Of a stretch of DNA of 64,000 bases, positions 1-64,000 are shown piece after piece; the first letter of the stretch is position 1, and every line of letters starts with the position of its first letter. Location: positions 147,250,001-147,314,000 of the forward strand of contig JANJGN010000006.1 of assembly GCA_026770705.1 (NCBI GenBank), given 5' to 3'. The notes under the pieces are model-generated. The model was not told where the DNA came from. It ran no database searches and saw only the letters and a list, made by a program, of their open reading frames with translations. Source of the stretch: Isurus oxyrinchus (taxonomy: Eukaryota). Both the position numbers and the translations under genes were made by a program.

Positions 1-596
1 GCTGTCTATATTAAATCTTCAATTGACCTAAATTTACATTTAATTTGATTAATATGAACACTTCGAAGATTTTGCTTCTTTAGTAGACTGTAAGCACTGA
101 AGTATGGAGTGTTTAAAAAGAGAGTATTTCACTGCTGACAGTGAGTTATGGTAGTTCTTTCTTGACCATGAAAGACCCATAACTCAGAAGTGCTGCAGCC
201 TCAAGGGAATTGAGATGACATTTCACACAAGTGAACAAATAGTGGGAGCTCACAGCGAGATATCCTATCAGCTATGCTAGCTCCTGTTGGGTCCTTAAAA
301 GATTTTATAATTGAATGCTGGAAAACCACACAGTAAAATGTTACATGAATTATTGATTTTCATTTTTCTTCATTGAAAATTGTTCGGGGAGCTAAACTTC
401 CCTAAAAACTGAATGTTGTTCTTAAATATCTCCCATAGTACCATCAAATATTATTGACTGCAGTAACACTTTGACTACTGGCAAAAAGTATGGAATAGTT
501 TTATGCGATTTTAATGATTTTTTTCACATTTAGTAATGCTCCAGTACTCCGATTGTAATATTTTGTGAGGTTAAAGATGCTATAATAATACACGTT

Positions 597-880
597 TTTT
601 ATTATTACGGGATGTGGGCGGCGCTGGCTAGGCCAGCATTTACTGCCCAGCCTTAATTGCCCTTGAGAAGGTGGTGGTGAGCTGCCTTCTCAGACCGCTG
701 CAGTCCACATGGAGTAGGTACACACACAGTGCTGTTAGGAAGGGAGTTCCAGGATTTTGACCCAGCGACATTGAAGGAACGGTGATATATTTCCAAGTCA
801 GAATCGTGAGTGCCTTGGAGGGGAACTTCCAAGTGGTGGTGTTCCCATGTGTTTGTTGCTCTTGACCTTCTAGACAGTAA
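597..880 (-). mobile_element. LINE-A (CR1-group non-LTR) 3' fragment
   Basis: Reverse complement of the tail ...aaggcagctcaccaccaccttctcaagggcaatta...ccagcgccgcccacatccc that is also seen at 12590-12690. Confidence 0.85.
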
Positions 881-1189
881 TGGTTGTCTATTTGCTGTAA
901 CTTACTTGTAGAAAACACAACCAAGAAATATATGTTGGGTGGAATTGTATGCCAGTGGGATTTTACAGTCTCGCTGAAGTCATCAATGGACTTTTGAATG
1001 GGTCTCCACATTTATTGGGCCCACCCCTGCATGATGGAGCTGTACAATTCTGCCTGTGATTATAATTACTACTAATGCAGCAGTGCAGTAATGCTGTTTA
1101 ACAGAACTAAGGTGAGAGATGCCAATGGTAGGGACTAGAATTCTTTTTTTTTTCATTTTTGGCACCCAGTCTTAGACAAGATCACAAGG

Positions 1190-1565: not shown

Positions 1566-1585
1566 TATGATCTCCGTAGAGACCA

Positions 1586-2258
1586 TGTAAGATTCTTGGA
1601 TTCAGGGCCACAAATACCTAAGATAGGCAGTTGACTATTCCTAATTAATTTTAAAGTAGTTTATTAAGAAGCAACAGTTGAAAAGTGGTGCATTAATTAA
1701 TTAGACAGAAGAAGTATAAAACACGGGACAGTTCGGAGTGGTTTACCAATCTCAGAGGACAAATGCATGGTTGACACAGAGGTTGACTTCAGTAGCTTGT
1801 GATAGGAGCATTTTGCTTTCTAGTCGAAGTGTTAGGGAACTCTTCCCTTGGTCTTCCTTCTCCTCCTCTTCTTCCTCTTCCACCTGAAGAAGGCGGCTGC
1901 CTATCAAGTGCTGCTATTTCACCAGCTGCCCCCTGTCCCTGAGCACTTGTTAATATACCCTTTTTCTGGGAGCTGGTAGCTTAACCAGTGTCAATCATCT
2001 ATTCAAACACTTCTGAACAATGGATACAGGACAGGTACCCAAAATGTCAGGGTATTTCCCTCCTCCCTTGTTCATCACATTGCTCAAGGTCAACTTTTTA
2101 GTTTGCATCATGCTGAGAGCCATTTTTTGACCCTTTCCAAACACTTGCATGGACAAGGGGGCACACAAGATACCATACTACCAATTTAGGAATGTCAACA
2201 TGGAAGCCTGAAGTGACCTTGCCATTTCCAGGGGCTGTTTAGCAGTCAAAATGTTTAG
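1586..2258 (-). mobile_element. LTR, truncated by an adjacent LINE insertion; same family as 54077-54811
   Basis: Begins tgtaagattc. Reverse complement is colinear with 54137-54811 over about 670 bp. Confidence 0.75.
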
Positions 2259-2259
2259 A

Positions 2260-2392
2260 GGGGAACCATCACCTGCAAGTTCCCCTCCAAGCCTCTCACC
2301 ATCCTGACTTGGAAATATGTAATGCTGCTCCTTCACTGTCACTGGGTCAAAATCCTGGCACTCCCCCCCCCTAACAGCACTGTGGGTGTACC
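2260..2392 (+). mobile_element. LINE-A 3' fragment
   Basis: caccatcctgacttggaaat...gggtcaaaatcctgg...aacagcactgtgggtgtacc, as at 12475-12567. Confidence 0.8.
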
Positions 2393-2636
2393 TTTTTTAA
2401 AATTTGTTCATTGGATGTGGGCATCGCTGGCTGGGCCAACATTTATTGCCCATCCCTAACTGCCCTTGTTCAGAGGGCATTTAAGAGTCAACCACATTGC
2501 TGTGGGCCTGGAGTCATATGTGGGCCTGACCAGATAAGGACAGCAGATTTCACTCCCTAAAGGACGTTAGTGAACCAGATGAGATTTTATGACAATCAGC
2601 ACTGGTTTCAAGGTCATCATTAGACATTTAATTCCT
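2393..2636 (-). mobile_element. SINE (LINE-A-related core + LINE-A tail), head missing
   Basis: Minus strand has core ...gcaatgtggttgactcttaaatgccctctgaa joined directly to caagggcagttagggatgggcaataaatg. Confidence 0.8.
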
Positions 2637-2649
2637 GGGTGGGGGAGGC

Positions 2650-3232
2650 GGGGGGGCAGTTTTCTGCATGTTGGGCAGGCGCATGCCTGACCTGACTGAG
2701 CATAAGATGATGCACGATGACATCGGGCAAACGTTCCGACATCATTGTGCTCTCACGCAATATTTCGGTCGATGGGTGCGCACCAGAGTCGGCAGCGCAC
2801 CCACCGACAATTATAAGGCCTAATAAGGCCATTAGAAGGGTGATTGAATGAAATTTTTCACTGCCCATCCAACCTTGCGGTTGGCGGGCAGGCAAAATGA
2901 TCAAGCAGCCTTTGCGTTTTTTTAGGAAACCTCATCTACATGCAGGATGAGGTTTCCAACAGCAAATAAAAATAAAATAATTTATTTTTAAATTCACTAA
3001 CATGTCCCTGCTCATGTGCAGAGTCACAAGAGGGAACATGTTTTATAACATTTTAGAAATCTTTATTCTTAATATTTTAAACTGTTCATCTCCCTGAGGT
3101 AGCTCTGCACCTCAGGGAGATTTTCAAGCGCGCACCCAGGAGCATGTATGAAATTTGTGCTCACCCTCCTCCCCCCACACATAGGCAATGCTGTCAAACC
3201 ATTTCACACTGGGCGGGCCTTAATTGGCTGAA
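2650..3232. mobile_element. MITE-like non-autonomous DNA element (Harbinger-like ends)
   Basis: Similar to 4184-4742 and 6761-7395. Internal aacctcatc...gatgaggtt palindrome. Confidence 0.6.
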
Positions 3233-3234
3233 AG

Positions 3235-4150
3235 GTCCAAATTCCAAAATGAGAAACCAAGATCTTTGACTTCCCCCAAGAAGCATAGCTTTGTCTTCTG
3301 GGCTTGCAGTCTCGACCTTGTACATAATCTTTAAGCCTGCTGTGTGTTTCAGAGCTTTTGCCCTGCACAGTTTACTGTGTAGTGTCCAACCTTGTTGCAC
3401 TAAGAGCATTGGGCTGAAACTGCAGGACATTGGTCTCACTTGTGGATGCGCTTTGCTCCACAGCTTTGGCACAGTCACTTTGCCAGCCAGCTCGGGTATT
3501 GCTTTCCCTGGTCTGGAGTGCGCCTGTATCTTTGTTGCTTAACTAACTGAACTGTGGGTGGCCTCTGCACCATGGTTTATTTTCTTCCTTCAAATTGCCC
3601 TTCTCAAGGGTAACTAGGAATGGGCAATAAATGCTGGCTTAGCCACTGACACCCACATCCCATGAACAAAGAAAAGAAATGCTTCTGTGTTACTCATGGA
3701 GTTCTTACTGCCTTATTATCTGGATTGACTTTTCCAGGGTTAGATCTTCCCTTGCTTGCAGCAGGTCCGAGAGTGTGTCATTCACTACTCCGACCACTAA
3801 CCTGTCTCTGATGAGTTCATATTTTAAATCTTCACATTCACAACTTTCTGCCATCCTGTGCAGATCATTGATGAATGAATTGACCAGCTCATCTGGCTGC
3901 TGGAGTCCATTGTTAAATTTAGCTCTTTTGAGTATGTTGCTTCTTAGATTAAAATAAATATCAAATGATTTTAGTTTTTAGCTCTTCAAATTTAGCAGAT
4001 GATCAGCTGAATGCTAACTTACTCTGCTTCTGATGTTTTGTCTAAGCCTGAAGTGATGCTGTATTTTAGGATTCTTTTCCTCCACAGTCCCCAATTATGT
4101 GATTGATCTGGGCCTCGGATTAGTTCAAATTCATTTGGAAGTTTGGAATG
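3235..4150 (-). pseudogene. gag: Ty3/Gypsy gag remnant with zinc knuckle
   Basis: Minus strand: RAKFNNGLQQPDELVNSFINDLHRMAESC..ELIRDRLVVGVVNDTLSDLLQAREDLTLEKSIQ, followed by a C..CNKVGHY knuckle. Contains stops and frameshifts. Confidence 0.8.
3598..3680 (+). mobile_element. LINE-A/SINE 3' tail inserted into gag remnant
   Basis: ttctcaagggtaactaggaatgggcaataaatgctgg...cccacatcccatgaa. Confidence 0.75.
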
Positions 4151-9889: not shown

Positions 9890-12691
9890 GGGGAAGGCGA
9901 TGGCATAGTGGTATTGTTGCTGGACAAGTAATCCAGAGACCTAAGGTAATGCTCAGGGGACCTGGGTTTGAATCTCGCCATTGCAGACGGTAAAATTTGA
10001 ATTCAATAAAAATCTGGAATTAAAGGTCTATTGATGACATTGTTGATTGTTGGTTCGTTAATGCCTTTAGGGAAGGAAACCTAGCACCCTTACCTGGTCT
10101 GGCCTGTATATGACTCCAGATGTGGCTGTGTGACTCCACAATGTGGTTGACTTTTAAATGCCCTCTGAAATGGCCAAGCAAGCAACTCAGTTATATCAAA
10201 CTGCTACAGAAAAGGAATAAAACCGGATGGACCACCTGGCATCTACATAGGCACCGGAAACAACAATGGCAATCTCAGCCCTGTTAGCCCTGCAAAGACC
10301 TCCTCTACTGGGTTTCTCATGTCCTACCAGCAGAACAGACCCAGGGATGGTGACAGTGGTGTCCTGGGCATTGCCTGTAAAGTATGATTCCGTGTTGCTT
10401 GATTAGTCTGGGGGCTAGTGCCAAAATTGGGAGAGCTGCCTCATAGACTGCAGCAGAGGTGGGGGCACAGTGATACACAGTCAGGAGGGAGTTGCCCTGG
10501 GAGTCCTCAGCATCGACACTGGACCACTTGGAGTCTCATGGCATCAGGTCAAAAATGGGGAAGGAAACCTCCTGCTGATTACCACGGACCTCCCTTCCTC
10601 AGCTGATGAATCAGTGCTCCTCCATGTTGAAAGCACTGAGGGTGGCAAGGGTGCAAATGCACAATTGTGGGGGGGGGGGGGGGGTGCAGTGGATTCAATG
10701 TCCATCTGGAAGGGTAGCTCAGTAGCACCACTACTGACCGAGCTGACTGAGTCCTAAATGACCTAGCTGGTAGACTGGGTCTGCGGCAGGTGGTGAGGGA
10801 AAAACATACTTGACCTTATCGTCACCAACCTGCCTGCCACAGGTGCATCTGTCCATGACAGTATCGGTAGAAGTAACCACCGCACAGTCATTGTGAATAC
10901 CTTCCAGCTTCACATTGAGGATAGACTCCAACGTGTGGTGTGGCACTACCACCGTACTAAATGGGACAGATTTTGAAAATATCTAGCAACTCAATACTGG
11001 GTATCCATGAGGCGCTGTGGGCCATCAGCATTGTACAAGAACACACTCTGTAGCTCATGGCCTGGCATATCCCCACTCTATAGATGCCAGTCTTCAGCAA
11101 ATTCGATTCACTCCACACAATAACAAGAAGTGGCTGAAGGCAATGGGTAGTGCAAAAACTATGGGCCCTGACAATATTCTGGCAATAGTACTGAAGACTT
11201 GTGCTCCAGAACTTGCCATGCCCCTAGCCAAGTATTGCAACACAGCTACAAGACTCTCATCTACCCAACAATTGCCCAGGTATGTCCTGTACATAAAAAG
11301 CAGGACAAATCCAATCTGGCCAATTACCAGCCCATCAGTCTACTCTCAATCATCATTAAAGTAATGGAAGGGGTCATCAACAGTGCTATCAAATGGCATT
11401 AGCTTAGCAACAACCTGCTTACTGACACGCAGTTTGTGTTCCAACAGGGCCATTCAGCTCCTGACCTCATTACAACCTTGGTTCAAATATGGATAAAAGA
11501 GCTGAACCCCAGAGGTGAGGTGAGAGTGACTGCCCTTGACATCAAGGCAGCATTTGACCGAGTGTGGCATTAAGGAGCCCTAGCAAAACTGGAGTCAATG
11601 GGAATCAGGGGGAAAACTCTCTGCTGTTTGAAGTCAAACCTAGCACAGGGGAAGGGTGTTGTGGCTGTTTGAGGTCAGTCATCTCAGCTCTACGACATCA
11701 CTGCAGGGGCTCATCAGTGTAGAGTTCTTGGCCCAACCATCTTCAGCTACTTTGTCAATGCCCTTCCTTCCATCATAAGGTCAGAAGTGGGGATGTTCGC
11801 TGATGATTGCACAATGTTCATCTCCATTCGCAACTTCTCAGATACTGAAGCAGCCCATGACTAAATGCAGCAAGACCTGGACAATATCCAGGCTTGGGCT
11901 GACAAGTGGCAAGTAACATTCGCACCATGCAATTGCCAGACAATGACCATCTCCAGCAAGAGAGAATCTAATCATTGCCCCTTGACATTCAATGACATTA
12001 CCATCATTGAATCCCCCACTATCAACATCTTGGGGGTTGCCATTGACCAGAAACTGAACTGGACTAGCCATATAAATACTATGGCTACAAGAGCAGGTCA
12101 GAGACTAGGAATCCTGCAACAAATAACTCACCTCCTGACTCCCCAAAATCCTGTCCACCATCTACAAGGTACAAGTCAGGAGTGTGATGGAATAGTCCCC
12201 ACTTACCTGGATGTGTGCAATTCCTACAACACTCAAGAAGCTTGACACCATCCAGGACAAAGCAGCCCGCTTGATTGGCATCATATCCACAAACATTCAC
12301 TGCCTCTGACACTGACACACAGTAGCAGCAGTGTGTACCATCTACAAGTTGCACTGCATGAATTCACCAAGGCTCCTTAGACAGCACCTTCCAAGCCCAC
12401 AACCACTACCACCAAGGACAAGGGCAGCAGATATATGGGAACATCAACAGCTAGAAGTCCGCCTCCATGTCATTCACCATCCTGACTTGGAAATATATCG
12501 CTGATCCTTCACTGTTGCTGGGTCAAAATCCTGGAACACCTTCCCTAACAGCACTGTGGGTGTACCTACACCACATGGACTGCAGCAGTTCAAGAAGGCA
12601 GCTCACTACCACATTCTCAAGGGCAACTAGGAATGGGCAATAAATGCTGGCCCAGCCAGCGAAGCCCACATCCCATGACTGAATTAAAAAA
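9890..12691 (+). mobile_element. LINE-A: tRNA-headed APE-RT non-LTR retrotransposon (decayed, internal deletions)
   Basis: A box tggcatagtgg 9901-9911 and B-box-like gggtttgaatc 9964-9974. APE start GLVPKLGEL at ~10412. RT fragments GPDNI..IVLKTCAPEL, NYQPISLLS, LDIKAAFDRVW, FADDC. Tail ends catcccatgactgaattaaaaa. Confidence 0.85.
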
Positions 12692-13890
12692 CACATGTCT
12701 CTGTCCAGTCCACAACTCTCACTAGACTCTGGTCATGTGACTCTTTACATCATACTGTGGGCGCTGCTGTTCTGAGTCGCACATTAACCCTTGCTATGCC
12801 AGATATCTTTATACTACACCTCCCCTATGTCTTTACCCAATGTATTCACAATACAATCATGTTTACCCAACATACTTAAATTACTATTATTCTGCCCCTT
12901 CTTCCTCCCTCAGGTCTCTTTCTTTACAGATTCAGGTGGTCTGTAGGCTTGACAACTCTTCTAGATCTTGTTCTGCTAATATTTGGAGGGCTGGTAGACT
13001 CTGTTGCTTTGGTTAAACCTTGTTGGTTCAGAGGTTAAATCATAAGTTTTCTTTCTGGCACTTGGTTGCCTTCTTCTAACTCTTTCTTTTCCGCTCCTTG
13101 AAGTTTAACCACTCCTTGTCAACTCTCCATCTGGCTTATCTTGTTCCTTTCGGAGAGAATGTATTGTCTGTTTGTTCTTAGTGTGAACCCGGTGTTTCTT
13201 TTGGCGTGTGTTCCACCGTGATCCTTGTGGGGGTCGAAGGTTTCTCCCCCCATCATGTAGTTGCGCCTTATCAATAGGCTCACCTTGCAGTTTGGACTTT
13301 TCCAAGGCATCATTCTCTTTGGTGTGCTTCCATGCCTCAGTGAGGTGTGCTGTGGCACATTGATAGTTGCTACCTTGTTCCATCAGCGTCCATGTTGTTG
13401 GATGCATTGGCTGGGGGTTGCAGCATCTGTGCTTGGTGTTTAGCGTTATTGTGATAGCAACATTTAGAGCCTGAGGTTGGGGTTCATCTTGCTGCTGCTG
13501 ATCATTCTCTTGATCGTCTTCCACTCGAGGCACCATGCTAACTATCTGCATGGTTGGCTGGTCTGACCAACTGCCTCCTGCAAAGAAACTGGATAAACCA
13601 GCTCTGCGAAGATTGAAGACAATTCAGAACTGAAGTCGCAGTCGAGAGTATCCTTATTGTTGGGCCTCCTGGGAAGTTACAGTTCTGTGTAATTAACGAA
13701 AGAGGTTATTTTGATGTCTTCTGCTATTTTAAAGAGGTTAAGGGCAACCCAAGCATCTCTGCTCAGAAGAGAACAAGATTGGTTACAAATGACGTGCATG
13801 ACTGAAAATATGTGCTTGTCCCAAATCTTAATGGTTCCAGGTTCATGCCATAACTGGAAGTCAGATTTATCCAGGCCCATACAGTGGTGT

Positions 13891-14091
13891 AAAACAAAAA
13901 CAGAATTACCTGGAAAAACTCAGCAGGTCTGGCAGCATCGGCGGAGAAGAAAAGAGTTGACGTTTCGAGTCTTCAACTCTTCAACGTCAACTCTTTTCTT
14001 CTCCGCCGATGCTGCCAGACCTGCTGAGTTTTTCCAGGTAATTCTGTTTTTGTTTTGCATTTCCAGCATCCGCAGTTCTCTTTGTTTTTAT
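13891..14091. mobile_element. Palindromic mini-element made of two inverted Penelope pLTR ends
   Basis: Near-perfect inverted arms (13891-~13963 and ~13983-14056). Flanked by 14-bp TSD ccatacagtggtgt (13877-13890, 14092-14105). Confidence 0.85.
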
Positions 14092-16071: not shown

Positions 16072-16874
16072 CCCTCTTCATTACTTACCTGTGGCCTGAG
16101 TCTTCCATGTTCTTTGACTCTGGAGGAGTGTCTTTCTGGCAGTGGCCACAGCCTGCTCAGTGGTACTGCTGAGCCGAAGGTCTGTCGGCCTCTGATTGGC
16201 CAACAGCTCACGGTAGGCAGGACTTCCACCCGCTGAGTCTGGATTCCAGGGGAAGGCCCGCTGACGGCCTTGCCACTGCCTAATTGGCTTGTGGTTCGGC
16301 GTGCCTTCCCAAAAAGAAGCAGCGTGGGTCTATTGATGGCTCTCCAGTCAGCAGGCGAGACCTGTGATGCATGGAAAAAATTCTGTCCATTGAAGTAAAT
16401 GTAAGCAACTGCCCATGTGTATTTAATTTGCATTTCCACGTCACCCCACTCACCACCACAGCTCTCCCCAACACCACCCTTTCTATCCAAAAAGGAAGGT
16501 CAGGGGAGGAATTCCTCTGGCTAATATGCACTGTGTTCACTCCTAAATAGATTTACTATATGGAGTAATCTGAGCAATTTCTCACCTTTAGTAAGAAAGC
16601 ATGAAAAAGTGATAATTTAGCAGATCAAAATCCCCAACATTATTGTGTGAGATACCAACAACTCACTCATCCAAAATTCCTCTTGCTGTTCTACTTTAAC
16701 TTGTGGTAACCTGTTTAAAATGCCTTAGGGCTCAAATAGAGGACAGACTAATACCAAGTAAATGTATTTAAGAGTTTAAAAGCAAAATACTGCAGATGCT
16801 GGAAATCTGAAACAAAAACAAAAATCGCTGGAAAAACTCAGCAGGTCTGACAGCATCTGTGGAGCGGAAGACAG

Positions 16875-16913
16875 AGTTAACATTTCGAGTCCGTATGACT
16901 GTTCATCAGAACT
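16875..16913 (-). ncRNA. Minimal type I hammerhead ribozyme motif (PLE pLTR)
   Basis: agtt-CTGATGA-acagtcatacggactc-GAAA-tgtt-aact. Confidence 0.55.
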
Positions 16914-17945
16914 GAAGAGAAATAGAAATGAGGTGAAATATAAGCTGGTTGATGGGAGTGGGACAGGTGGAGCTGGATAGAGGGCCAGTGATAGGTGGAG
17001 GCAAAGGAGAGATTGCCAAAGATGTCATAGAAAAAAGGACAAAGGGGTGTTGACAGTGGTGATATTAACCAAAAGATGTGCTAATGGTGACATTAAGGAT
17101 AGAATGAGCAAGTGACAGATAGCCCTAGTGGGGATGGGGTGGGGGGAGGGGATCGAAATAGGCTAAAAGGTGGAAATAGGCTAAAACAATGGATGGAAAT
17201 AAATTTAAATATAATAATAGAAACATGTGAGAAAAGAAAAATATATTTCAAAATATATATAATAATTATTAGTAAAAAGGGGAACAGAAAGGATGTGGGG
17301 ATGGGGGAGAGAGTTCATGATCTGAAGTTGTTGAACTCAATGTTAAGTCCAGAAGTGCCTAATCGGAAGATGAGGTGCTGTTCCTCCAGTTTGCGTTGAG
17401 CTTCACTGGAAAATTGCAGCAGGCCAAGGACGGACATGTGGGCATGACAGCAGGGTGGTGTGTTGAAATGGCAAGCGACAGTGAGGTCTGAGTCATGCTT
17501 GCGGACTGACCAAAGGTGTTCCGCAAAGCGGTCACCCAGTCTGCGTTTGGTCTCTCCAATGTAGAGGAAACCGCATTGGGAGCAGCAAATGCAGTAGATT
17601 AAATTGAGGGAAGTTCTGCTTCACTTGAAAGGAGTGTTTGGACTTTTGGACGGTGAGGAGGGGGCAAGTAAAGGGGCAGGCGTTGCACTTTCTGCGGTTG
17701 CATGGGAAGGTGCCATGGGAGGGGTTTGAGGGGTAGGGGGTGATGGAGGAGTGGACCAGGGTTTCCGGAGGGAACGGTCCCTATGGAACACCGACCATGG
17801 GGTGAAAGGGAGATGTTTTTAGTGGTGGCATCATGCTGGATTTGGTGGAAATGGTGGAGGATGATCCTTTGAATGCGGAGGCTGGTGGGGTGATACGTGA
17901 GGATAAGGGGGACCCTACCATGGTTCTGGGATTCTATTTCTCTTC

Positions 17946-18092: not shown

Positions 18093-18497
18093 AGGGGAGA
18101 TAGTGGCATGGTGATAACGCCCATCTGTGAACTAGTGATCCAGAGGCCCATGCTAATGCTCTGGTGATATGTGTTCAGATTCCACCATAGAAGCTGGTAA
18201 AATTTGAATTTAATTAATAAATCTGGAATACAAAGCTAGTCTTAGTAATAGTGACCATGACAGTTGTCATAGATTGTTGTAAAAACCCAGTTGATTTACT
18301 AATGCCCTTTTGGGAAGGAAAACTGCCATCCTTACCTGGTCTGGCCTATACCTGACTTCAAACCCACAGCAATGTGGTTGACTCTTAACTGCCCTCTGAA
18401 ATGACCCAGCAAGTCACTTAGCTCAAGGGTAGTTAGAGAGAGACAACAGATGCTGCCCTTGCCAGTGATGCCTATATCCCTGAAAGAATTTTTTAAA
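18093..18497 (+). mobile_element. Full-length tRNA-headed SINE with LINE-A head, core and tail
   Basis: Head ggggagatagtggcatggtg; core ccttacctggtctggcct...gccctctgaaatg; junction ...cacttagct|caaggg...; tail ...atcccctgaaagaat. Confidence 0.8.
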
Positions 18498-21101: not shown

Positions 21102-24100
21102 ATGGCAGGGTGATTGGAACCTATGCAAGGAATCAGAGGAAGGGGAATCAAGGACAAAACAAAAGACAGAAAGGGAAATAAGAAAAGTGATAGGCAGAGA
21201 AATCAAGAGCAAAAATCAAACAGGTCCTCAGTGAAAAATAGTAGGAACGGGACAAGTAATGTTAAAAAGATAAGCCTTAAGGCTTTGTGCCTTAACACAA
21301 GGAGCATTTACAATAAAGTGGATGAATTAACTGCGCAAACAGATGTAAACAGGTATGATATAGTCAGGATTACAGAGACATGGCTGCAGGGATGGGAACT
21401 GAATGTCCAGGGGTATTCAGTATTTAGGAAGGACAGACAAAAATGAAAATATGGTGGAGTTGCATTGCTAGTTAAAGAGGAAATTAACACAATAGTGAGG
21501 AAAGATATCAACTCTGAAGATGTGGAGCCTGTATGGGTAGAGCTGAGAAACAGTAAGGGTCAAAAAATGTTAATGGAGGTTGTATATTGGCCCCCAAACT
21601 GTTGTGTTGATGTTAGGAATGGCATTAAACATGAAATTAGAGATGCATGCAATTAAGGAACATCTGTAATTATGGGTGACATTAACATGCATAAAGATTG
21701 GACAAATCAAATTAGTAACAATACATTAGGGGAGGAATTCCTAGACTGTATATGGGATGGTTTTCTGGACCAACACGTTGTGGAACCAAAGAGAGAACAG
21801 GCCATCCTAGACTGGGTATTGTGTAATGAGAAAGGAATAATTGGCAATCTAGTTGTGCGAGGCCCCTTGGGAATGAGCGACCACAATATGATAGAATTCT
21901 TCATCAGGATGGAGTGTGACATAGTTGATTCTGAGACTAGGGTCCTGAATCTTAATAAAGGAAACTACGATGGTATGAGACGCGAGTTGGCTATGATGGA
22001 TTGGGACACGTTACTTAAAGGGATGATGGCGGATAGGCAATGGCAAACATGCAAAAGCGTATGGGTGAACTGCAACAATTCTTTATTCCTGTCTGGTGCA
22101 AAAGTAAAACAGGAAAGCTGGCTAAGCCATGGCTTATTTGGGAAGTTAGAGATAGTATTAGATGCAAGGAAGAGGCATACAAATTGGCCAGAAAAAACAA
22201 CAGACCTGAGGATTTGGAGCACTTTAGAATTCAGCAAAAGAGGACCAAGGGATTGATTAAGAAGAGGAAAATAGAGTACAAGAGTAAGATTACAGAGAAC
22301 ATAAAAACTGACTGGAAAAGTTTCTATAGATATGTAAAGAGAAAAAGATTGGTGAAGATAAATGTAGGTCCCTTACAGTCAGAAACAGGGATATTTATAA
22401 TGGGGCACAAAGAAATGGCTGACCAACTAAATACATACTTTGGTTCTATCTTCACAAAGGAGGACACAAATAACACACCAGAAATGTTGGGGAACAGAGT
22501 TTAGTGAGATGGAGGAACTGAAAGAAATCAGTATTAGTAGGGAAATGGTATTGGAGGAATTGATGGGATTGAAGGCCGACAAATCCCCAGGGCCTGATAA
22601 TCTACATCCCAGAGTACTTAAGAAAGTGGCCCTAGAAATAGTGGATGCATTGGTGGTCATCTTCCAAGATTCTATAGACTCTGGAACAGTTACTACAGAT
22701 TGGAGGATAGCTAATTTAACCCCACTATTTAAAAAGGGAGGTAGAGAGAAAACAGGGAATTATAGACCAGTCAGCCTGACGTCGGTAGTGGGGAAAATTC
22801 TAGAGTCCATTATAAAAGATTTAATAGCTGAGCACTTGGAAAATAGTGGCAGAATCAGACAGAGTCAGCATGGATTTACAAAAGGGAAATCATGCTTGAC
22901 AAATCAACTGGAATTTTTCGAGAATGTAACTAGTAGAGTTGATGAGGGGCAGCCAGTGGGTGTGGTTTATTTGCACTTTCAGAAGGCTTTCGACAAAGTC
23001 CCACATAAGAGGTTGGCGTGTAAAATTAAGCACATGGGATTGGGGGTAGTGTATTGAGATGAGTAGAAAACTGGTTGGCAGACAGGAAACAAAGAATAAA
23101 CCGGTCTTTTTCTGAATGGCAGGCAGCGATTAGTGGGGTACCGCAGGGATCCGTTCTATTCACAATATATATTAATAATTTAGAAGAGGAAACTAAATGT
23201 AATATCTCCAAATTTGCAGATGACACAAAGCTGGGTGGGAGGGTGAGCTGTGAGGAGGATGCAGAGATGCTTCAGTGTGATTTGGACAAGCTGATTGAGT
23301 GGGCAAATGCATGGCAGATGCAATATAATGTGGATAAATGTGAGGTTATCCACTTTGGTAACAAAAACAGGAAGGCAGAATATTATCTGAATGGCTATAA
23401 ATTGAGAGAGGGGAATGTGCAACAAGACCTGGGTGTCCTTGTACACCAATCACTGAAGGTAAGCATGCAGGTGCAGCAGGCGGTAAAGAAGGCAAATGGT
23501 ATGTTGGCCTTCATAGTGAGAGGATTCGAGTACAGGAGCAGGGATGTCTTGCTGCAATTGTACAGGGCCTTGGTGAGACCGCACCTGGAATATTGTGTGC
23601 AGTTTTGGTCTCCTTATCTGAGGAGGGGTGTTCTTGCTTTGAAGGAGTACAGAGAAGGTTTACCAGACTGATTCCTGGGATGGCGGGACTTCTTCTTCTT
23701 ATCGTGTCCACGGACAGTCTATACATGGCCCAGCTAGAACTGGACACATTTTTGCACCTTGTTGTTGATTTCAGCAAGATCTGCAACAGTGCAGGGTTCC
23801 TCTAGCGATAGACATTGCAGGAGATGTTGCATGGTCTGTGGCTCAGTTCCACATTCACAAGTTGTCGGGTTGGTTGTATATCCCCATTTGCTTAGTGACA
23901 CGTTTGAATGACCTACACCAGTCCTAAGTCTATTAAGGCACTTCCAGGTTGCCCAGTTGCAATTAGCTCCTGGGGGAAGGCTTTCATCTGGTAGAATTTC
24001 CATCGCTGGGGGTTGTTCGAGACTGGCGAGCCGGTCTTTCCACAAGGCGATGTGGGTTTCAGATGGGGCTGATTGTAATGGAACAACACTGTTCATGAAG

Positions 24101-26334: not shown

Positions 26335-27510
26335 TTTCTTTTAGTTCATTCATGGGATGTGGGCTTTGCTGGTTGGGCCAGCATTTATTGCCCATCCCTT
26401 GTTGCCCTTGAGAAGGTGGTGGTGAGCTGCCTTCTTGAACTGCTTCAGTCCCTGTGGTGTAGGTACACCCACAGTGCTGTTAGGAAGGGGGTTCCAGGAT
26501 TTTGACCCAGCGACAGCGAAGGAACGGCGATATATTTCCAAGTCAGGATGGTCTGTGACTTCGAGGGGAAATTCCAGGAGGCAGTATTCCCATCTATCTG
26601 CTGCCCTTGTCCTTCTAAATGTTAGTGGATGTGGGTTTAGAAGGTGCTGCCTGAGGAACCTTGGTGAATTCTTGCAGTACATATTGTAGATGGTACAAAC
26701 TGCTGCCACTGTTCGTTGTTGGTGGAGGGAGTGAATGTTTGTGGATAGGGTGCCAATTAATCAGGCTGCTTTGTCCTGGATGGTGTCAAGCTTCTTGAGT
26801 GTTGTGGGAGCTGCACTCATCCAGGCAAGTGGGGTGTATTCCATCACACTCCTGACTTGTGCCTTATAGATGGTGGACAGGCTTTGGGGAGTCAGGAGGT
26901 GAGTTACTCATCACAGGATCCCTAGCCACTGACCTGCTCTTTTAGCCACCGTATTTATATAGCTAGTCCAGTTCAGTTTCTCGTCAATGGTAACCACCAG
27001 GATGTTGGGATGTAGTGGAGGACTCAGTGATGGTAATACCATTCAATGTCAAGGGGCAATGGTTAGATTGTCTTTTGTTGGAGATGGTCATTACCTGGCA
27101 TTTGTGCTGTGCGAATATTACTTGCCTCTTATCAGCCCAAATCTGGATATTGTCCATGTCTTGCTGCATTTGGACATGGACTGCTTCAGTACCTGAATAG
27201 TGCAGAACATTGTGCAATCATCAGCGAACATCCCCACTTCTGACCTTATGATGGAAGGAAGGTCATTGATGAAGCAGCTGAAGATGGTTGGGCTAAGGAC
27301 ACTACCCTGAGGAACTCCTGCAGTGATGTTCTGAGCTGAGATGACTGCCCTCCAACAACCACAACCACCTTCCTTTGTTCTCGGCATGACTCCAACCAGT
27401 GGAGAGTTTTCCCCCTGATTCCCATTGACTCCAGTTCTGATAGTGCTCCTTGAAGCCACACTCGGTCAAAATGCGGCCTTGATGTCAACGGCAGTCACTC
27501 TCACCTCGCC
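26335..27510 (-). mobile_element. LINE-A, 5'-truncated (RT C-half + tail)
   Basis: GVPQGSVLSPTIFSCFINDLP..MFADDC on the minus strand, and the family tail. Confidence 0.9.
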
Positions 27511-27519
27511 TCGGGATAT

Positions 27520-28745: not shown

Positions 28746-28879
28746 TGCCACCACCTGCAAGTTCCACTCCAAGCCTCACACCAACCTGACTTGGAAATAT
28801 ATTGCTGTTCCTTCACTGACATTGGATCAAAACCCTATAACTCCCAGCCTGACTGCACTGTGGGCGCCCTAATTGGCTG

Positions 28880-31774: not shown

Positions 31775-32640
31775 ACTTTCAAGCTGTCAAAGAGCTGTCC
31801 AGCTCTCAAGGAACTGTCCAACTGTCAAGGAACTATTAAAGAACTGTCCATGGTAACATAGAAAATAGGAACAGGAGTAGGTAATTTGGCCCATCGAGCC
31901 TGCTCCACCATTCAATATGATCATGGCTAATCCTTTACCTCAATGCCATCCTCCTGCCCTCTCCAAATATCCCTTGATCTCTGTGGTATCCAGTAATCTA
32001 TCTATTTCTTTCTTAAATATATTCAGTGACTTGGCCTCCACAGTCTTCTGTGGTAGAGAATTCCATAGGTTCACCACCCTCCAGCTGTCAAGGAACTGCC
32101 TAACTCTCAAGGAACTGTTAAAAAGCTTTCCAGTTGTCAATCAACTGTGGAAGAGTTGTTTAGCCATCAAGGAACAGTTAAAGAGCTACCTAACTGTCAA
32201 AGAACTGCCCAGCTGTCAAGGAACTGTCTAGCTGTCAAGAAACTAATAAAGAGCAGCCCAGATGTCAATGAACTGATAAAGAGCTGTCCAGCTGTCAAGA
32301 AACTGCCCAGCTATCAAGGAACTAATAAAGAGCTATTCAGCTATCAAGCTACTGTCCAGCTGTCAAGGAACTGATAAAGAGCTGTCCGGCTATCAAGGTA
32401 CCATCTAGCTGTCACGGAGCTGATAAAGAGTTATCCAGCTATCAAGGAACTGTCCAGCTACCATGAAACTGTTAAAAGCTATGCAGCTGTCAAAGAACTG
32501 TTCAGCTGTCAAGGAACTGTTAATGAGCTGTCCAGCTGTCAAGGAAATTTCCAGCTGTCAGGGAACTGTTAAAGAGCTGCCCAGTTGTCAAATACGCCAA
32601 AGCTGTAAAGGAAGTGTCAAAGCTGTCCAGAAAGTATCAA
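31775..32640. repeat. Minisatellite of ~18-bp (agctgtcaaggaactgtcc-like) and ~30-bp (with ttaaagag) units
   Basis: Directly visible tandem degenerate units. Interrupted by a CR1 tail. Confidence 0.9.
31852..32080 (-). mobile_element. CR1 3' tail inserted in minisatellite
   Basis: Minus RVVNLWNSLPQKTVEAKSLNIFKKEIDR followed by the tail. Confidence 0.85.
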
Positions 32641-32644
32641 AACT

Positions 32645-34540
32645 ATTAAACCTCTCTTCTCTAAGTTTGATTAGTTTATCAATTATATCTCTCCTTTCCA
32701 TTCTGAATTTCTTTCTATCTTTTTTGATACCTTCAACTAATGTTAAGCCTACTTTATTAATTTCCCTGGTACATACCAAGGCAAAATAATTATTTAATAG
32801 TTCTGCCATTTTGTCGTAATTCCCTATGGATTTACCATGTGCATTTCCTAGTAACCCTCTCCTTATCATGACTTTCCTTTGTTATTTGTAGTATAGAATT
32901 CTTTTCATATTCTTGATAATTGAAATTGTGATGTCACTTTGCCTTCCTAATTGTATTTTTTTTATTGCCCTCCTCACCTGTTTACATTCATTGTGTCATC
33001 CTGTCCTTTATTGTCTGTATATATGATGTATGCATTTTTCTACAGTCTCAGTTTTCCCCTATTTCCTTATTCATCCATGTTATATCAACAATAGAACGTT
33101 TGATCTTGTTTTTTACTGAAATATGTTTCTCCTGGATTTTATTGGTCACTCATTTGTTTCCAATCCCTGCCCGTCACGCCCCCACCCCCCACACCCAGCA
33201 CTGCTGTTCTACTTTTTTGTTTGCCAATGTATTTGTTCACTTTATTTTCCCTAGTTCCATCCTCATCCTCATAAAATTAGCTCCCCCCACCTGCCAAATT
33301 ATTATTAGGGTCGGGCATGGCTGAGTTGTAGCACTCTTGGAACGCTGGAAAATATGAACAGAAGTAGGACCACTCAACCTCCCAGACATGCTCTGTCAAG
33401 GTGGATCTACAACACAACTCCCTCTACCCACCCTCATTTCATACCCCTTAACACTCTTGCCTAACAGTAGCCTATCTATCTCAATATTGAATTTTTCAAT
33501 TGAAAAGGTCTCAATAACCTTTTGGGGGCGTGGGTTCCAGCTTTACACCAGCCTTTGTTTGTAAATGATTAAAGCAGTTTCTAGCATAGATAGAGAGAAT
33601 CCATTTTATTTGATGGGAGCTCCAAAACAAAAGGATACAAATTTAAAATGAGAGCTCGGCCATTCAGGAATGATTTCAACAAGTGCTTTTTCAAACAAAG
33701 GCTGGTGTAAAGCTGGAACCCACGCCCCCAAAAGGTTATTGAGAGCACTTGTTGAAATCATTCCTGAATGGCCGAGCTCTCATTTTAAATTTGTATCCTT
33801 TTGTTTTGGAGCTCCCATCAGATAAAATGGATTCTCTCTATCTATGCTAGAAACTGCTTTAATCATTTATATTGCCTTTCAATAAAAGCCAACTTACCTT
33901 TTGCCTTTCTAATTGCTTGCTGTTCCTGCGTAGTAACTTTCTGTATTTCTTGTACAAGGAAACCCAGGTCCTGCTGAATACTAACATTTGTTCCCTGTGG
34001 CACACCACTTGTTACATCCTGCCAACCAGAAAAAGATAGATTTATAGCTACCTTCTGCTTGCTGTTAGCCAGCTAACCTTCTATCCATGCCAATACCCCC
34101 TACACCATGAGCTTTTATTTTCCACAATAACCTTTGATGTGGCATCTTATCAAACGCCTTCTGAAAATCTAAGTACAGTACATCCACCCCTTTATCCACG
34201 GCACATGTGACTCCTTCAAAGAACTCCAATATATTGGTTAAACATGATTTCCTTTTCACAAAATCATGTTGGCTCTGCCTGATTACCTTGAATTTTTCTA
34301 AGTGTCCAGTTATAACGTCTTTCATAATAGCTTCTAACATTTTCCCTATGGCAGATGTTAAGCCAACTAACCTGTAGTTTCCTTCTTTCTGGTTCCCTCC
34401 CTTTATGAATAATGGAGCTAAATTTGCTATTTTCCAATCTAATAGGACCTTCCCCGAACACAGGGAGTTTTGTAAAATTAAAACCAATGCATCAACTATC
34501 TCACTAGCTGTTTCTTTCAAGAATCTAGGATGAAGGCCAT
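32645..34540 (-). mobile_element. Several CR1 ORF2 fragments
   Basis: MAELLNNYF (32588-32869); GLHPRFLKETASEIVDAL...YLDFQKAFDKMPH (34065-34586). Confidence 0.8.
33509..33869. repeat. Interleaved inverted duplication A-B-A'-B'
   Basis: A 33509-33561 is the reverse complement of 33692-33744. B 33562-33687 is the reverse complement of 33744-33869 (one mismatch seen). Confidence 0.9.
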
Positions 34541-34689
34541 TAATAACAATGAGCAAGAGCAGGCTGTGATGGAAATGGCTTGTCAATTTAGTTGTGAGGC
34601 TTCATTTAAAAGACACAGTAAAAAAGCATTATCATCTCATTTTCCACTAATATTAACAAGGTTGTTATAATATCATTGAATATTACTGG

Positions 34690-42049: not shown

Positions 42050-43554
42050 TTTTTTTATTCATTCATGAGATCTGGGTGTTGCTGGCTGGGCCAGCATCTA
42101 TAGATCATTCCTAATTGCCCTTAAGAAGGTGGTGGTGAGCTGCCTGCTTGAACCGCTGCAGCCCATGTGGTGTAGGAACACCCACAGTGCTGTTAGAGAG
42201 GGAGTTCCAGGATTTTGACCCAGTGACGGTGAAGGAACAGTAATATATTTCCTAGTCAAGATGGTGGGTAGCTTGGAGGGGAACTTCCAGGTGGTGGTGT
42301 TCCCATCTATCTGCTGCCCTTGTCCTTCTAGATGGTAGTGGTCATGGGTTTGGAAGGTGCTGTCTAAGAAGCCTTGGTGAATTCCTGCAGTGCATCTTGT
42401 AGGTGGTACACACTGTTGCTACTGTGCATCAGTGGTGGAGGGAGTGACTGTTTGTGGATGGGGTGCCAATCAAGCGGGCTGCTTTGTCCTAGATGGTGTC
42501 AAGCTTCTTGGGGGTTGTTGAAGCTGCACTCATCCAGCCAATGCTGATAGAGCGGGATTCAGCAACGTTAACGCCATTGAATGCCAAGGAGTAATGGTTA
42601 GATTCTCTTTTGTTGTAAATAATCATTGCCTGGCATTTCTGTGGTATTTGAGCTTTAGGACTCAGCCAGCTCAGTCAGTAGTAGTGCTACTGTGCCACTC
42701 TTGGTGATGGACATTGAAGTCCCCCGCCTATGGTACATTCTGCACCCTTGCCACCCTCAGCGCTTCCACCAAGTGGCGTTCAATATGGAAGAGTACTGAT
42801 TCATCAGCTGAGGGGAGGGATGGGAGGGGTTGTGGGGTTGGGGGGTTGGGGATACGTGGTAATCAGCAGGAGGTTTCCTTGCCCATGTTTGACCTGATGC
42901 TATGAGATTTCACGGGGTCTGGAGTCGATGTTGAGGACTCCCTGGCAACTCTCTCCTGCAGTATACCACTGTGCCACCACCTCTGCTGGGTCTGTCTTGC
43001 CGGTGTGAATTTACTTAACCAGTGGTGGTGATGGTGGTGTCTGGGACATGATCTGCAAGGTATGATTTCGTGAGCTGTTGCGTGGCTAGTCTGTGAGGCA
43101 GCTCTCTCAATTTTGGCACAAACCCCCAAATGTTAGAAAGGAGGACCTTGCAGGGCCAACAGGGCTGAGTTTGCCATTGCCGATGTCCAGGTCAATGGTG
43201 GGTGGTCCTTCTGGTTTCATTCCTTTTATTCCATTTATAGGTTTTCTAGCAGTTTTATACAACTTAGTGGCTTGCTAGGCCATTTAAGAGTCAACCACAT
43301 CTGGAGACATATGTAGGTAAAGACAGCAGATTTCCTTCTCGAACAGTCATTAGTGAACCGGATGAGGTTTTTTTTTAAACAACAATGGCCTCTTGGCCAT
43401 CATTAGACTTTTAATTAAGATTTTTATTTATTGAATTCAAATTCCACCATCTGCCATGGAGTGACTCGATCTCCAGTCCACAAAAGCATTACTTGTGTCT
43501 CTGAATTACTGGTCCAGTGACAATACTGCTACACATTTCATCACCGTCTCCCCC
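42050..43554 (-). mobile_element. LINE-A, internally deleted, retaining tRNA head, core, APE start and 3' tail
   Basis: Head at 43554-43430, core 43400-43260, APE N-terminus 43140-42660, RT end and tail 42650-42050. Confidence 0.85.
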
Positions 43555-56629: not shown

Positions 56630-58950
56630 GAAGCAGGAACAAGGTGAGCCTATTGATAATTTGTTAATGAGATTGAAGGTTGCAGCCAGCAACTGTAAAT
56701 CCGAAGAGATGGGTGAAAGGCTGATAGATCAGCTCATCTGAGACTCTGCACAGCTTGGTATACAAAAAGCTCTGATTGGAAAAGACAAGATTACAATATC
56801 GCAGGCTGCAGACTCTGCCAGAGCACATGAAGCCACAACTCAGCAGATGAAGATGTTGAATACCCAATAAGTCAAAAGAAAGGTAGCAGGGTTGATGCAG
56901 TGAGACAGCAACAAAAGGATGCGCACCAGGTACAAGAGCTGTTGGGAACCACATAAGTTCACAGACAGAAGAAAATACATCACATACGGGTCAAACTTTG
57001 CAGCTTGTGGTAAGCTCAATCAGTAGGAAAAGATGCACTGAGCAGAGAAATAAGATCATAAAGAGCCTACCAGAAGCCGAGCAACTGGGAAAATGAGAAG
57101 AAAAAAAATATCAAAACATCCTTACCCTGGGAGGTGATGGTGTAGTGGTATTGCCTCCAGTAAACCAAGGGTAATGCTCTAGGAGTTCAAATCCCACCAT
57201 GGCAAATGGTGGAATTTGAATTCAATAAAAAAATCTGGAATGAAAATTTTCATCTGGTTCAGATGAAGGAAATCTTCTGTCTGGCCTACATGTGGCAATG
57301 TGGTTAGCTCTTAAATTCCCACTGATGGGCAATAAATGCTAGCCTAGCCAGTGATGCCCACATCCCATGAATGAATTCAAAGAAATGTCAATGACTCTGA
57401 GGATGCACTAGACTTAGGAACCATAAAACTGCATGAAATGTCTCAGAGAAAAGAAAATCACACAACCATTCAGATCAGGAGAGGGTGAGAAATAAACTGA
57501 CAACCATAAATCTGAAATGAAGATCACCACCAGAGCACAGAGTGAAAACACTCCCCTTCCCTCAAACTATACAGGGAGATCTTTCTCAAAAAGTTTAAGG
57601 AAGTAGTTACCCAAAGAAAGATGCTTTTAAAACAAGCAGATGGTAGCATCAGGTGGAACTGAACTGACATTCAATGACCCAAATCAGAGTGACACACAAG
57701 ACATTAACTGCACGTTCCAAGTCATGGAAAAAAAAGGTCCTGCTCTCCTGGGGTTGCAAAATGGATGGATATGCATTTGCTTGTACCCCAAAGATCTTAA
57801 CCAAATAATAAAGAGGAATCACAGCAACACTAGAAGAGATCATGCCAGCTCTTGCAGGGGCAAAAGTTTTCAATCAGTTTGGTGTCATAAATAGCTACTG
57901 GAACATGAATCTTGATGAGGAACCTTCCATGATGACAACACTCAACACACCCTTTGGATGGTCCAAATCCCTGCGTATACCTTTTGGCCTTAAAAGTGAG
58001 CCAAGATGTGATCAAGAGAAAAGTAGATGAGATATACAGGGGATGAAAAGAAACAGTCAGCAAAACTGATGATATCTAGACCTTTGGTTTAAATTAAAAA
58101 GATCATGACCATGATCTACATGAAGCCATGGAAAGAACAAGGAAAACTGGGATCAGGCTAAACACAGACAAATGCTTTGTGAAGGTAACAGAATGCCAGT
58201 TCTTTGGAATGGTGTACAAACATTATGGAATCAAACTGAGACCTGAAAAAGTCACTACCATCTCTGAGACAGGAGTTCCGAGAGACAAAAAAGAGCTGAG
58301 AAGTTGCTTTGTCTTGATCCAGTACATGAGTTCTTTCATACCTCACATATCAGAACACACAGCAAACCTACAAGAGCTGATGAAAAAAAAAATGTTGCAT
58401 ACCAGTGATCAGAGTCATATGAAAGGAGTTCCAGCAAACTCAAAAACAGTATTCAAGGAGACAAGTTTCATACCAGAACAAAAAGAAACCTGTCACCTGC
58501 AAGTAGAAGCTTTTGCAAAAGGACTGGGGCCACCCTTGGTTTAAGGAGGAAAGCAATTGGCATTCGCATCCAAAGTTTTAATATCAGCTGAGACCAGGTA
58601 TGCCAATATAGATACAGGGTTTTTGACAGTCAAGTATGGATGTGAGAAATTCCATAAATATCTCTATGGGAGAAAGTTCATAATGGAGAGTGATATTGTC
58701 CACTGGAACAGATCTGCAAGAAAAATCTGTGCAGGGTTCCATAAAGATTGCAGAAGTTATTCTTGAGGCTTCAGAAATACGATTTCACTCTAAAATACAA
58801 GCCAGGAAGAGAGATGTTGCTGACAGATGCCCTTTTTAATCTGTCACCACAGGAGAAACATGAGATAAAAGATCTAGGTGTAAAGGTCCACCACGTAATG
58901 AACATAACGCAACTAAAACTGAGTCAAATTGGAGATAAGAGCAGCAAAGG
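56630..58950 (+). pseudogene. pol: Ty3/Gypsy gag-pol remnant (RT, RNase H)
   Basis: EQGEPIDN; PKDLNQ; LAGAKVF..TTLNTPFG..IPFGL; GIRLNTDKC; AFASKVL.SAETRYANI..CEKFHKYLYGRKF; LQKYDFTLKYKPGREMLLTDAL. Confidence 0.85.
57129..57384 (+). mobile_element. Short tRNA-headed SINE (LINE-A head + tail)
   Basis: A box tggtgtagtgg, B box gagttcaaatcc, junction ...cccactga|tgggcaataaatgc, tail cccacatcccatgaatgaat. Confidence 0.8.
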
Positions 58951-62122: not shown

Positions 62123-62435
62123 ACAAGGCTCCTTCAACAGCACTTTCCAAAACTGCAACTTCTGCACTTAGAAAGGCAAGGACACCAGATGCATGGGAAC
62201 ACCACCACTTGCAAGTTCCCCTCCAAGCCACACACCATCCTGACTCGTTGCTTCACTGTCGCTGGGTCAAAATTCTGGAACTCCCTCCCCAACAGCACTG
62301 TGGGTGTACCTGGACCATAGGGACTGCAGCAGTTCAAGAAGGCAGCTCACCACCACCTTCTCAAGGCAATTAGGGATGGGCAATAAATGCTGGTCTAGCC
62401 AGCAACGCCCACATTGCACAACTGAATAACAAAAA
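62123..62435 (+). mobile_element. LINE-A 3' fragment
   Basis: Family tail cagttcaagaaggcagctcaccaccaccttctcaagg...gcccacatt. Confidence 0.88.
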
Positions 62436-64000
62436 TACATTAAGTCCTCTTAAACATAAAGACCTTAAACTACCACTTACTTTGTAATCAGAGGTTTTGT
62501 AAAATGTGAAATGCCTTCAGAAAGGCTTGTGATGAAACTAATAGCTGCTGACAGTCCCGAGGTTTAAACTTCAATGGATAAGTCTCTGTTTTGCCTATAA
62601 CGTATTGTACAATAATTCTAGTACACTATGCAAATATAAGAAAAAGGGTTGCTGTACATTAAAATTAAATTTATTTTGAATATATTTAACTCTTCAACAA
62701 CGAGTTATCCGCTCCCAAGACATGAACGTTTGTACAAGTATCATGAAAACTGTTGAACAACATCAGTTTACGCTTGTTTTTATCTGTGGGGTGGGGACAG
62801 AGGGATAATTAAATCCAAAAAAAAATCTTTTAAATGTAATAAGTTGCTGAGGACTGAAGATATATTTAAAAAGAAACACTAGGTAATTTGTGTCAGGTAA
62901 ATTGGCGTCAAATGTAAAAATGTTCGAGGTTGATTTTTAGCTCCAGAGGGTTTAGGAGAGCATGGGGTCAGGATGAAAGCACAACATTCTCTCTGGCCTA
63001 AGTTTGAGACCTGAGGGTATTTTAACTTCCAAAACTCATCTGTAGACCATCAGTCAGCTGCCATCCAAAATGGGCAGAAAACAACAAGTGACAGATAGGC
63101 AGGGGAGAAAGTTCAGGCTCTCAGGCCTTTCTGGCCTCACAAATAAAGCTCTTCAATTACCTTGAAAACCATTTTCGTCCTGCCGACCTGCTTTCACCTG
63201 GCAGAAAAACTGTGGTGGTTTCTCCACTCAGGCCCAGGATAAGTTGCAGTTGGGCCCCCATTAATATAATAGGACCCTAATGTGCACAGGTTTGCAGGCC
63301 CCCCCACCTGGTTTAAGCTGCTGTCTCAGCCACCTGCAGTGTTCTGCAGCCCAAGATCACAAGCTGCGGTCGAGGAGCAAATTAATAACCCATCCTGCCT
63401 TGTTTCCAACAGGTAAGAAGGATTAAAAACAATCGCATATTCAAATGCATGATAGAATCAGAAGAGACTTTGACCAGCTGTATATTAGTTTCTTTTTCTA
63501 TCAAGTGTCGTGGTATCACAAGCTTAGCTGTCAAATCTACTGACACTTTGCAATATCTTTGATACTGGTAGTATCAAATCAACTAATGTTATGCTGAGAT
63601 CAGAAGTATTGATATTCTGTCTTAAGTAATGAATTTCCAGATTGTAAAATCTGATTGAGTGAGACGTTAATGTTTTTGTAAGATTTTTGTCATCGTCATT
63701 GGAAATAGTGACAGAGTAAGCAACAGGACCTCACTGACACAGGCCTGGTTTTTGCTTGGAGAAATACCTTACTACAACATGGCTTACCATACTCATGTGA
63801 CCTCTGATGTCTTTTTATGTAAAAAAAAAAGGGCAAGTACCATTTTGCACACTACCTGGAACATGGGGCTGGATTTTACGGACACCCACCAATAGGTTTG
63901 AAGCTGGGGGGGCTTGTAAAATACACCACATGACCTTCCCACTGCCTTACCACCTATCTCCTAAGTTACAGTGGGAGAGAAGGCATTAGGCAGCCTGCCT

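Follow-up and report, generated by a model that had tools for sequence, protein, structure and literature searches.

The SINEs described here are, with a probability that we put at about 70%, the joined ends of a tRNA-headed Zenon LINE; two junctions between those ends were amplified, likely through separate deletions from an older and a younger subfamily of the parent. The short elements consist of the first 303-326 and the last roughly 70 bases of this LINE. In the standard account, a rare chimeric event makes a SINE by fusing a small-RNA head with the tail of a LINE. Here, one deletion is enough to give a complete SINE because the LINE itself bears the head, one LINE subfamily after another seems to have given rise to SINEs of its own, and the case offers a testable route for the birth of SINEs and the origin of SINE bodies.

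Short copies in the window and the census of their junctions

The window, the whole 64-kb stretch of Isurus oxyrinchus DNA that was analyzed, holds the following copies of the LINE, called LINE-A in the earlier note, and of its short relatives.

18093..18497, + strand: SINE subfamily A copy, with tRNA-like head, core, junction at 18423/18424 and LINE tail
18094..18190, + strand: tRNA-like head of the 18093 copy, with A-box-like and B-box-like motifs
2393..2637, - strand: SINE subfamily B copy, 5'-truncated, junction at 2469/2468
57129..57385, + strand: decayed beta-type SINE copy, junction at 57325/57326
9891..12691, + strand: headed Zenon LINE copy of the beta subfamily, 2.8 kb, with head (9891-10192), endonuclease and RT remnants, tail and A-run
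42050..43553, - strand: headed Zenon LINE copy with beta-type head, 1.5 kb, with two internal deletions
26336..27516, - strand: 5'-truncated Zenon LINE copy, the 3' 1.2 kb, an ordinary truncation product
592..887, - strand: 5'-truncated Zenon LINE 3' end
62124..62440, + strand: 5'-truncated Zenon LINE 3' end
2256..2393, + strand: Zenon 3'-region fragment, lying tail-to-tail against the B copy
28748..28864, + strand: Zenon 3'-region fragment
3599..3670, + strand: tail-only Zenon fragment

Our self-comparison and alignment bore out the earlier note in that three short copies possess a common core and tail, with the head kept in the copies at 18093 and 57129, and the likeness between cores (2469-2597 versus 18272-18400) was beyond chance (E 3e-26). 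The three core-to-tail joins it had read were likewise confirmed: cacttagct to caaggg at 18423/18424 (+), ccctctgaa to caaggg at 2469/2468 (-), and cccactga to tgggcaataaa at 57325/57326 (+). The proposed length series held for the 2.8-kb and 1.5-kb copies, in which both ends are present; the intact element of ~3.3 kb was missing from it. The 18093 copy was typed alpha, with the alpha state at 16 of 17 diagnostic head sites and an alpha tail as well; its head was not among the 33 called by relaxed ARAGORN. The 2393 copy, which begins at profile position 125 of 316, was typed beta (9/9 scored core sites, tail beta-type). The 57129 copy is probably a B-type SINE with an extra, GA-bounded deletion at 57325/57326 plus several other gaps, and because the alignment revealed at least five further gaps across its head and core, it is regarded as decayed. 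In the 2.8-kb copy, whose head gave a tRNA-like call in relaxed ARAGORN, ~410 nt were deleted at 11080/11082, and a small inversion was found at 10298-10394.

Junctions were counted as exact pattern matches over the 4.98-Gb genome, and the counts are lower bounds because the copies are 5-15% diverged. Junction A (18093 type) returned 1,488 exact 29-mer matches genome-wide and junction B (2393 type) 1,575 exact matches, with a further 16 for a near-A, beta-derived junction three bases away; the reversed patterns, used as a control, gave 0 matches genome-wide. The 57129-type junction had 7 matches, itself included, and the larger-deletion junction of the 1.5-kb copy had 1, making it unique in the genome. 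The join of the 2.8-kb deletion had 0 genome matches among family-form copies, the pattern being written in that form, which missed the 2.8-kb copy too. According to this census, the amplified subfamilies number two rather than three and stand out from scattered one-off products: the earlier proposal that a junction marks an amplified subfamily held for the 18093 and 2393 types and failed for the 57129 type and the 1.5-kb copy. SINE A equals LINE nt 1-326 plus 3227/3228 to the end, and SINE B equals nt 1-303 plus 3228 to the end, with no foreign sequence between. Both are short, non-coding and amplified and have a tail in common with the LINE, as the criteria for tRNA-derived SINEs describe.

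The opposing view, that every junction is either a deletion made after insertion or a SINE that happened to insert beside a LINE, holds in its post-insertion form for the 1.5-kb copy and probably for the 57129 and 2.8-kb copies. For the joins of A, B and the headed LINE, it is refuted by 1,488, 1,575 and 696 loci, unrelated to one another, that have identical junctions, a recurrence that also answers the earlier worry that every junction might be unique, and as a general account we give it next to no chance. The 57129, 2.8-kb and 1.5-kb copies are unamplified deletion products, whereas A and B were amplified, and most other products are single or rare.

A 1.264-Mb sample, drawn at round-number coordinates with 200 kb beside the window and therefore not a random draw, contained 41 head/core matches (~32 per Mb), which makes the family an abundant one. 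An automatic junction classifier was dropped as too lax, and 34 of the 41 were classed by eye as A (11), B (8), headed LINE (6), longer intermediates (4), near-A beta (2) and decayed (3), with seven excluded (one near-identical duplicate and six fragments or split halves). Twelve intermediates, with a gap of at most 60 nt, retain additional LINE sequence to either side of the join, and most of their joins differ. Head-plus-tail deletion products are thus structurally frequent, with many breakpoints, and would probably arise through template jumps of the RT or through later DNA deletion. Such a product would be a ready-made SINE because the promoter and the recognition tail are both retained.

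Target-site duplications of at least 7 nt were present in 2 of 30 copies against a shuffled mean of 0.92, short ones possibly being hidden by the 10-15% divergence, and tail folds in five decayed window copies were not significant (z -0.9 to -1.8). Same-type SINE junction pairs on opposite strands, ~200 nt apart, were noted at C1:254981496/254981732 and C1:46337151/46337357.

The window also contains repeats of other kinds. A Penelope-like element at 49236-51387 (+) carries a 554-aa frame that matches RVT_1 (E 8e-8) and, after it, a 286-aa frame that matches GIY-YIG weakly, and related pieces lie at 44327-45121 and 17203-17931. A MITE-like short palindromic family is represented at 13888-14059 (92% self-complementary over 173 nt), with relatives at 16777-16962, 37369-37503, 45146-45331 and 51697-51889. 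The segment 33509-33869 is a 300-nt imperfect palindrome, and 31781-32636 is a tandem array of ~50-nt units. Other LINE fragments with endonuclease and RT matches occur at 21657-23671 (+) and 33992-34601 (-), the first belonging to a family used as a T-run control.

The Zenon LINE and its tRNA-like head

LINE-A is the elasmobranch Zenon LINE of the CR1 group, ~3.3 kb long, with a single endonuclease-RT frame. Genomic copies measured ~3.2-3.3 kb from the head to the A-rich tail, an A-rich 3' end being present in LINE copies, and natural fragments matched Pfam PF14529/PF03372 (AP endonuclease) and PF00078 (RT). The column majority of 22 younger copies was 3,277 nt long and contained one 975-aa frame (nt 313-3240) in which the first Met is codon 291; ORF1 was absent from this majority, with all other frames at most 106 aa. 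The published shark and ray Zenon consensuses, compared by eye over their 5' 400 nt, agree with LINE-A in that portion. In an RT comparison based on a seven-protein tree without named references, identity was 33-34% to P0001/P0004 and 27% to two other local LINE families, and a protein database search returned unnamed relatives at 26-30% plus two shark gene models with a fragment. No intact copy was found among 147 scored RT matches, the longest open frame being 603 aa, and the Zenon family therefore now seems dead in this genome. In one ray, 3 of 612 ORF2 are given as intact in Table S3 of PMC13343379.

Several further features of the element were recorded. An 86-codon ATG-containing frame in the LINE majority (nt 206-466; window ~10100-10310) extends, in a different phase, over the beginning of the main frame and could be an upstream ORF governing translation. 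Most of the LINE copies with the best scores are located toward the ends of the long contigs. Two predicted horn shark proteins, P0003 and P0006 (zinc finger protein 850-like and storkhead-box protein 1-like), hold a 66-74% identical endonuclease piece, which is an exonisation or a gene-model error. Contigs from four public sequencing runs, guessed to be RNA, cover the element and its head and are uninformative on start, strand and polymerase.

The first 326 nt of the LINE comprise the tRNA-like head together with the core, and the description of the family as tRNA-headed was upheld by relaxed ARAGORN calls, by genome-wide head-to-LINE junctions and by agreement with published consensuses. ARAGORN at -ps90 called a tRNA in 33 of 98 heads (SINE 17/50, LINE 16/48) versus 0 of 490 shuffles; at default settings it called 0 tRNAs in the 64-kb window, and Rfam gave no significant tRNA match on the heads (best E 6.6). 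The A box and the B box were present within one mismatch in 24/48 and 31/48 LINE heads and in 36/50 and 34/50 SINE heads, respectively. The head-to-LINE junction had 696 exact 29-mer matches genome-wide; among 30 headed-junction loci read by hand from a BLAST table, 28 go on into the LINE and the other 2 pass directly to the tail, and in the 1.264-Mb sample, the head is present in five of the six copies that reach the endonuclease start. Over the first 400 letters of the consensuses in Table S2 of PMC13343379, judged by eye, the head stands at the start of 7/7 elasmobranch Zenons and 0/3 hagfish and coelacanth Zenons. This absence suggests that the head was most likely captured once, before the deletions, and the Zenon LINE would have gained it, tRNA-derived and equipped with A and B boxes, before the shark/ray split. 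An Rfam tRNA match of 29.9 bits at L022:2127-2184 (+) is unrelated to the Zenon head and possibly belongs to another SINE.

Likely pairing of the SINEs with LINE subfamilies and the number of births

SINE A is distinguished from SINE B by 17 sites in the head and 3 in the tail, and the head majorities are separated by 8 substitutions (A versus alpha-LINE) and 9 (B versus beta-LINE), compared with 25-27 across the pairs. In a tree of 98 heads, one starred branch (SH-aLRT 98) divided B plus beta-LINE (52 rows) from A plus older LINE (46 rows). Because LINE heads were labelled by the diagnostic sites that separate A from B, and alpha-LINEs were chosen by one alpha site, the head similarity is partly circular; the body sites and the ages are not. 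Eleven transversions located 1.4-3.0 kb into the LINE body co-vary with head type (permutation mean 0.06, maximum 3 of 200). Divergence was 0.128 (targeted) and 0.148 (sample) in SINE A and 0.124-0.141 in the older LINEs, and 0.098 and 0.103 in SINE B and 0.100 in the beta-LINE (targeted), with four beta-LINE heads from the sample averaging 0.143, older than SINE B. The comparison of head phylogenies that the earlier note had called for thus revealed SINE heads that do not stand apart from LINE heads, each SINE appearing to pair with a different LINE subfamily. SINE B very probably derives from the younger LINE, and the derivation of SINE A from the older LINE is also probable, though held with less confidence.

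An order in which the SINE came first, a pre-existing A-like SINE passing its entire head on to the LINE through template switching and B (or neither) being born later from the LINE, appears unlikely. The head, absent from hagfish and coelacanth Zenons in the Table S2 consensuses, must have been gained from somewhere; a tRNA head followed by a non-tRNA core resembles a SINE module, A is older than B, and junction A lies at TTG, 12 nt inside the LINE frame, where whole-frame capture could land. However, the LINE carries the SINE head exactly to the head-tail join and none of the SINE tail, and none of the 41 sample matches is a SINE in which the head is followed by a different tail. A body tree of 48 copies with midpoint rooting places alpha-headed copies as basal and longer-branched, and its most basal LINE copies (L285-L287) have heads of a type that resembles the published Squalus consensus in the portion compared. 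This Squalus-like head, scored on both test motifs, was found in 2/12 alpha-LINE heads and 0/27 A heads, with 2 A heads matching one motif each way. The oldest head type therefore sits on LINE copies, and SINE heads older than and paraphyletic to those of the LINE, the pattern named earlier as the mark of a captured SINE, were not seen. Deletion and capture had been posed as alternatives; both probably occurred, the head having presumably been captured first and the deletions following later.

With the SINEs read as deletion products of the LINE, the head and body comparisons make at least two births by separate deletions likely, so that the claim of repeated birth survives for two events and lapses for a third, the 57129 junction having only 7 matches. 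A and B have the same 3' breakpoint, at which independent deletions should rarely coincide, and an AU test on the heads, with gaps not counted, did not reject A plus B as one clade (p=0.059); the independence of the two births is accordingly no more than likely. Exact matching recovered 3 copies genome-wide that combine a beta head with the A junction and 22 that combine the alpha site with continuation into the LINE. The copy L284 (G000:C29:20521094-20524272) is a chimera with a beta-type head and an A-type junction and tail, an exchange between subfamilies, and because such a chimera reveals recombination between these RNAs, subfamily pairings can be faked. A single birth, in which B arose from A by losing 23 nt, after which recombination or conversion with the younger LINE replaced both its head and its tail, would accommodate the common breakpoint at the tail start, the AU result and the three chimeric matches. 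It nevertheless calls for two exchanges in addition to the deletion, B is beta throughout at head and tail sites, the expected intermediate is almost missing (the same 3 matches), and the beta-derived junction three bases away (16 matches) is an equally good precursor of B. We consider a single birth quite improbable and favor separate deletions from the two subfamilies.

T-runs, transcription and known systems

By the usual division, Pol III transcribes SINEs, which are non-coding, and Pol II transcribes LINEs, which are coding. The LINE sense strand contained 0 TTTT in 3,277 nt, along with 14 A4, 11 C4 and 10 G4 runs, and the older-subfamily majority also had 0 TTTT. In the LINE frame, TTT occurred 4 times versus 13.0 in synonymous shuffles (0/1,000 as low), an approximately threefold depletion, and runs of A, C and G were as expected against the same shuffles. 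Two control LINE families from the same loci had 12 TTTT in 2,514 nt and 12 in 2,109 nt, with no depletion of TTT, and natural copies carried 0.57 TTTT per kb (Zenon) versus 4.5 (controls), the control families being older (75% versus 86% identity) and of another clade. The zero count of TTTT taken alone had P=0.2 under dinucleotide shuffles, 0.07 under synonymous shuffles and 0.016 under a third-position model. Phe accounts for 1.8% of the LINE protein versus 3.2-6.7% of six other ORF2 proteins, and 8 of the 18 columns with Phe in at least four of those six have a different residue in the LINE.

Short T-tracts terminate Pol III, a T4 tract being reported to do so in human cells (10.1101/2021.08.27.457903). 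The composition of the LINE suggests that it was rather likely transcribed by Pol III from the tRNA-like head, and its sense strand would have been purged of T-runs because of this transcription. Since no ATG precedes the endonuclease in the frame, a non-AUG translation start is probable, with the TTG at nt 324 as its candidate. In a fuller picture, to which we give even odds, the elasmobranch Zenon would have been transcribed by Pol III from a captured tRNA head for >250 million years, with a 975-codon frame recoded against T-runs at a cost in Phe, AUG-less translation of an uncapped RNA, and repeated service as a one-step SINE factory. If true, the T-run signature marks a natural long coding RNA made by Pol III and poses the question of its translation.

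The head could instead be a passenger on a LINE made by Pol II through read-through or a promoter of its own, with T-runs lost through strand bias or avoidance of RNA-processing signals, a lesser but serious possibility. Such LINEs are treated as Pol II units in the relevant parts of Wang 2019 (PMC6740152) and Kojima 2018 (PMC5786205), TT dinucleotides are low overall in the LINE (0.68 of expected), and an uncapped 3.3-kb RNA would still need translating. Against this, the depletion is T-specific and exceeds what codon usage explains, the A and B boxes are kept about equally in LINE and SINE heads, and the headless hagfish and coelacanth Zenons contain T4-or-longer runs within the first 400 letters of their consensuses (PMC13343379 Table S2). 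A passenger head would touch the Pol III step only, and the origin of the SINEs by deletion therefore stands.

In the openly accessible full-text literature, no description was found of an autonomous LINE that has a tRNA head or is driven by Pol III, nor of these SINEs as having arisen by deletion; the comparisons that follow draw on the available parts of the papers cited. The elasmobranch Zenon of PMC13343379 resembles LINE-A in its single ORF, absence of ORF1, A-rich tail and length of ~3.3 kb. In the main text of that paper, the word tRNA appears nowhere and SINE once, in the reference list, and the head, the SINE derivatives and the T-run loss are undescribed there. Among shark SINEs, HE1 (a V-SINE, with HER1) and SacSINE1 (a DeuSINE) are tRNA-derived and have a 3' tail in common with a partner LINE (PMC3747384, PMC4824008, PMC5499810). 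In those parts they are reported as sharing tails only, the tail of SacSINE1 matching an L2, and since they were compared by description, one of them could be the same SINE as ours. A labelling as HE1/V-SINE proved mistaken or unfounded: the core does not resemble the bivalve V-domains in print, with three motifs from the PMC4824008 supplement, where bivalve sequences were compared, matching only with 3-4 mismatches in 10-15 nt. By eye, the core also bears no likeness to the bivalve Meta and Meta-Deu sequences with which it was compared. The nurse shark repeats NSRE1/2 are presented without mention of tRNA in the available part of PMC1513397, and Zenon tails are used by bivalve SINEs, compared at the tail only (PMC11481361).

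The closest parallels concern SINEs and deletion elements with both ends of a LINE. In Bov-A/Bov-tA, Vingi and the RTE derivatives (PMC5786205), the SINE body and tail come from the two ends of a LINE, as here; in those systems, the deletion came first and the tRNA head was added later, a model also given in PMC7245038, whereas in the shark the autonomous element already had the head. In the available text of PMC5786205, SINEs that contain 5' parts of a LINE are described only for RTE and Vingi, and the shark clade is CR1/Zenon. Persaeus, the SIDE of moth and butterfly Zenon (PMC6740152), belongs to the same LINE clade and comprises deletion elements made of the 5' and 3' ends, with several births that each group with their own LINE. 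According to the passages on it, Persaeus has neither tRNA homology nor a Pol III promoter; in the shark, the LINE's own 5' end is tRNA-like, and the product is therefore a textbook SINE. Given that A and B are built solely from the 5' and 3' ends of the LINE, as a SIDE is, the shark case is a SIDE that is simultaneously a SINE.
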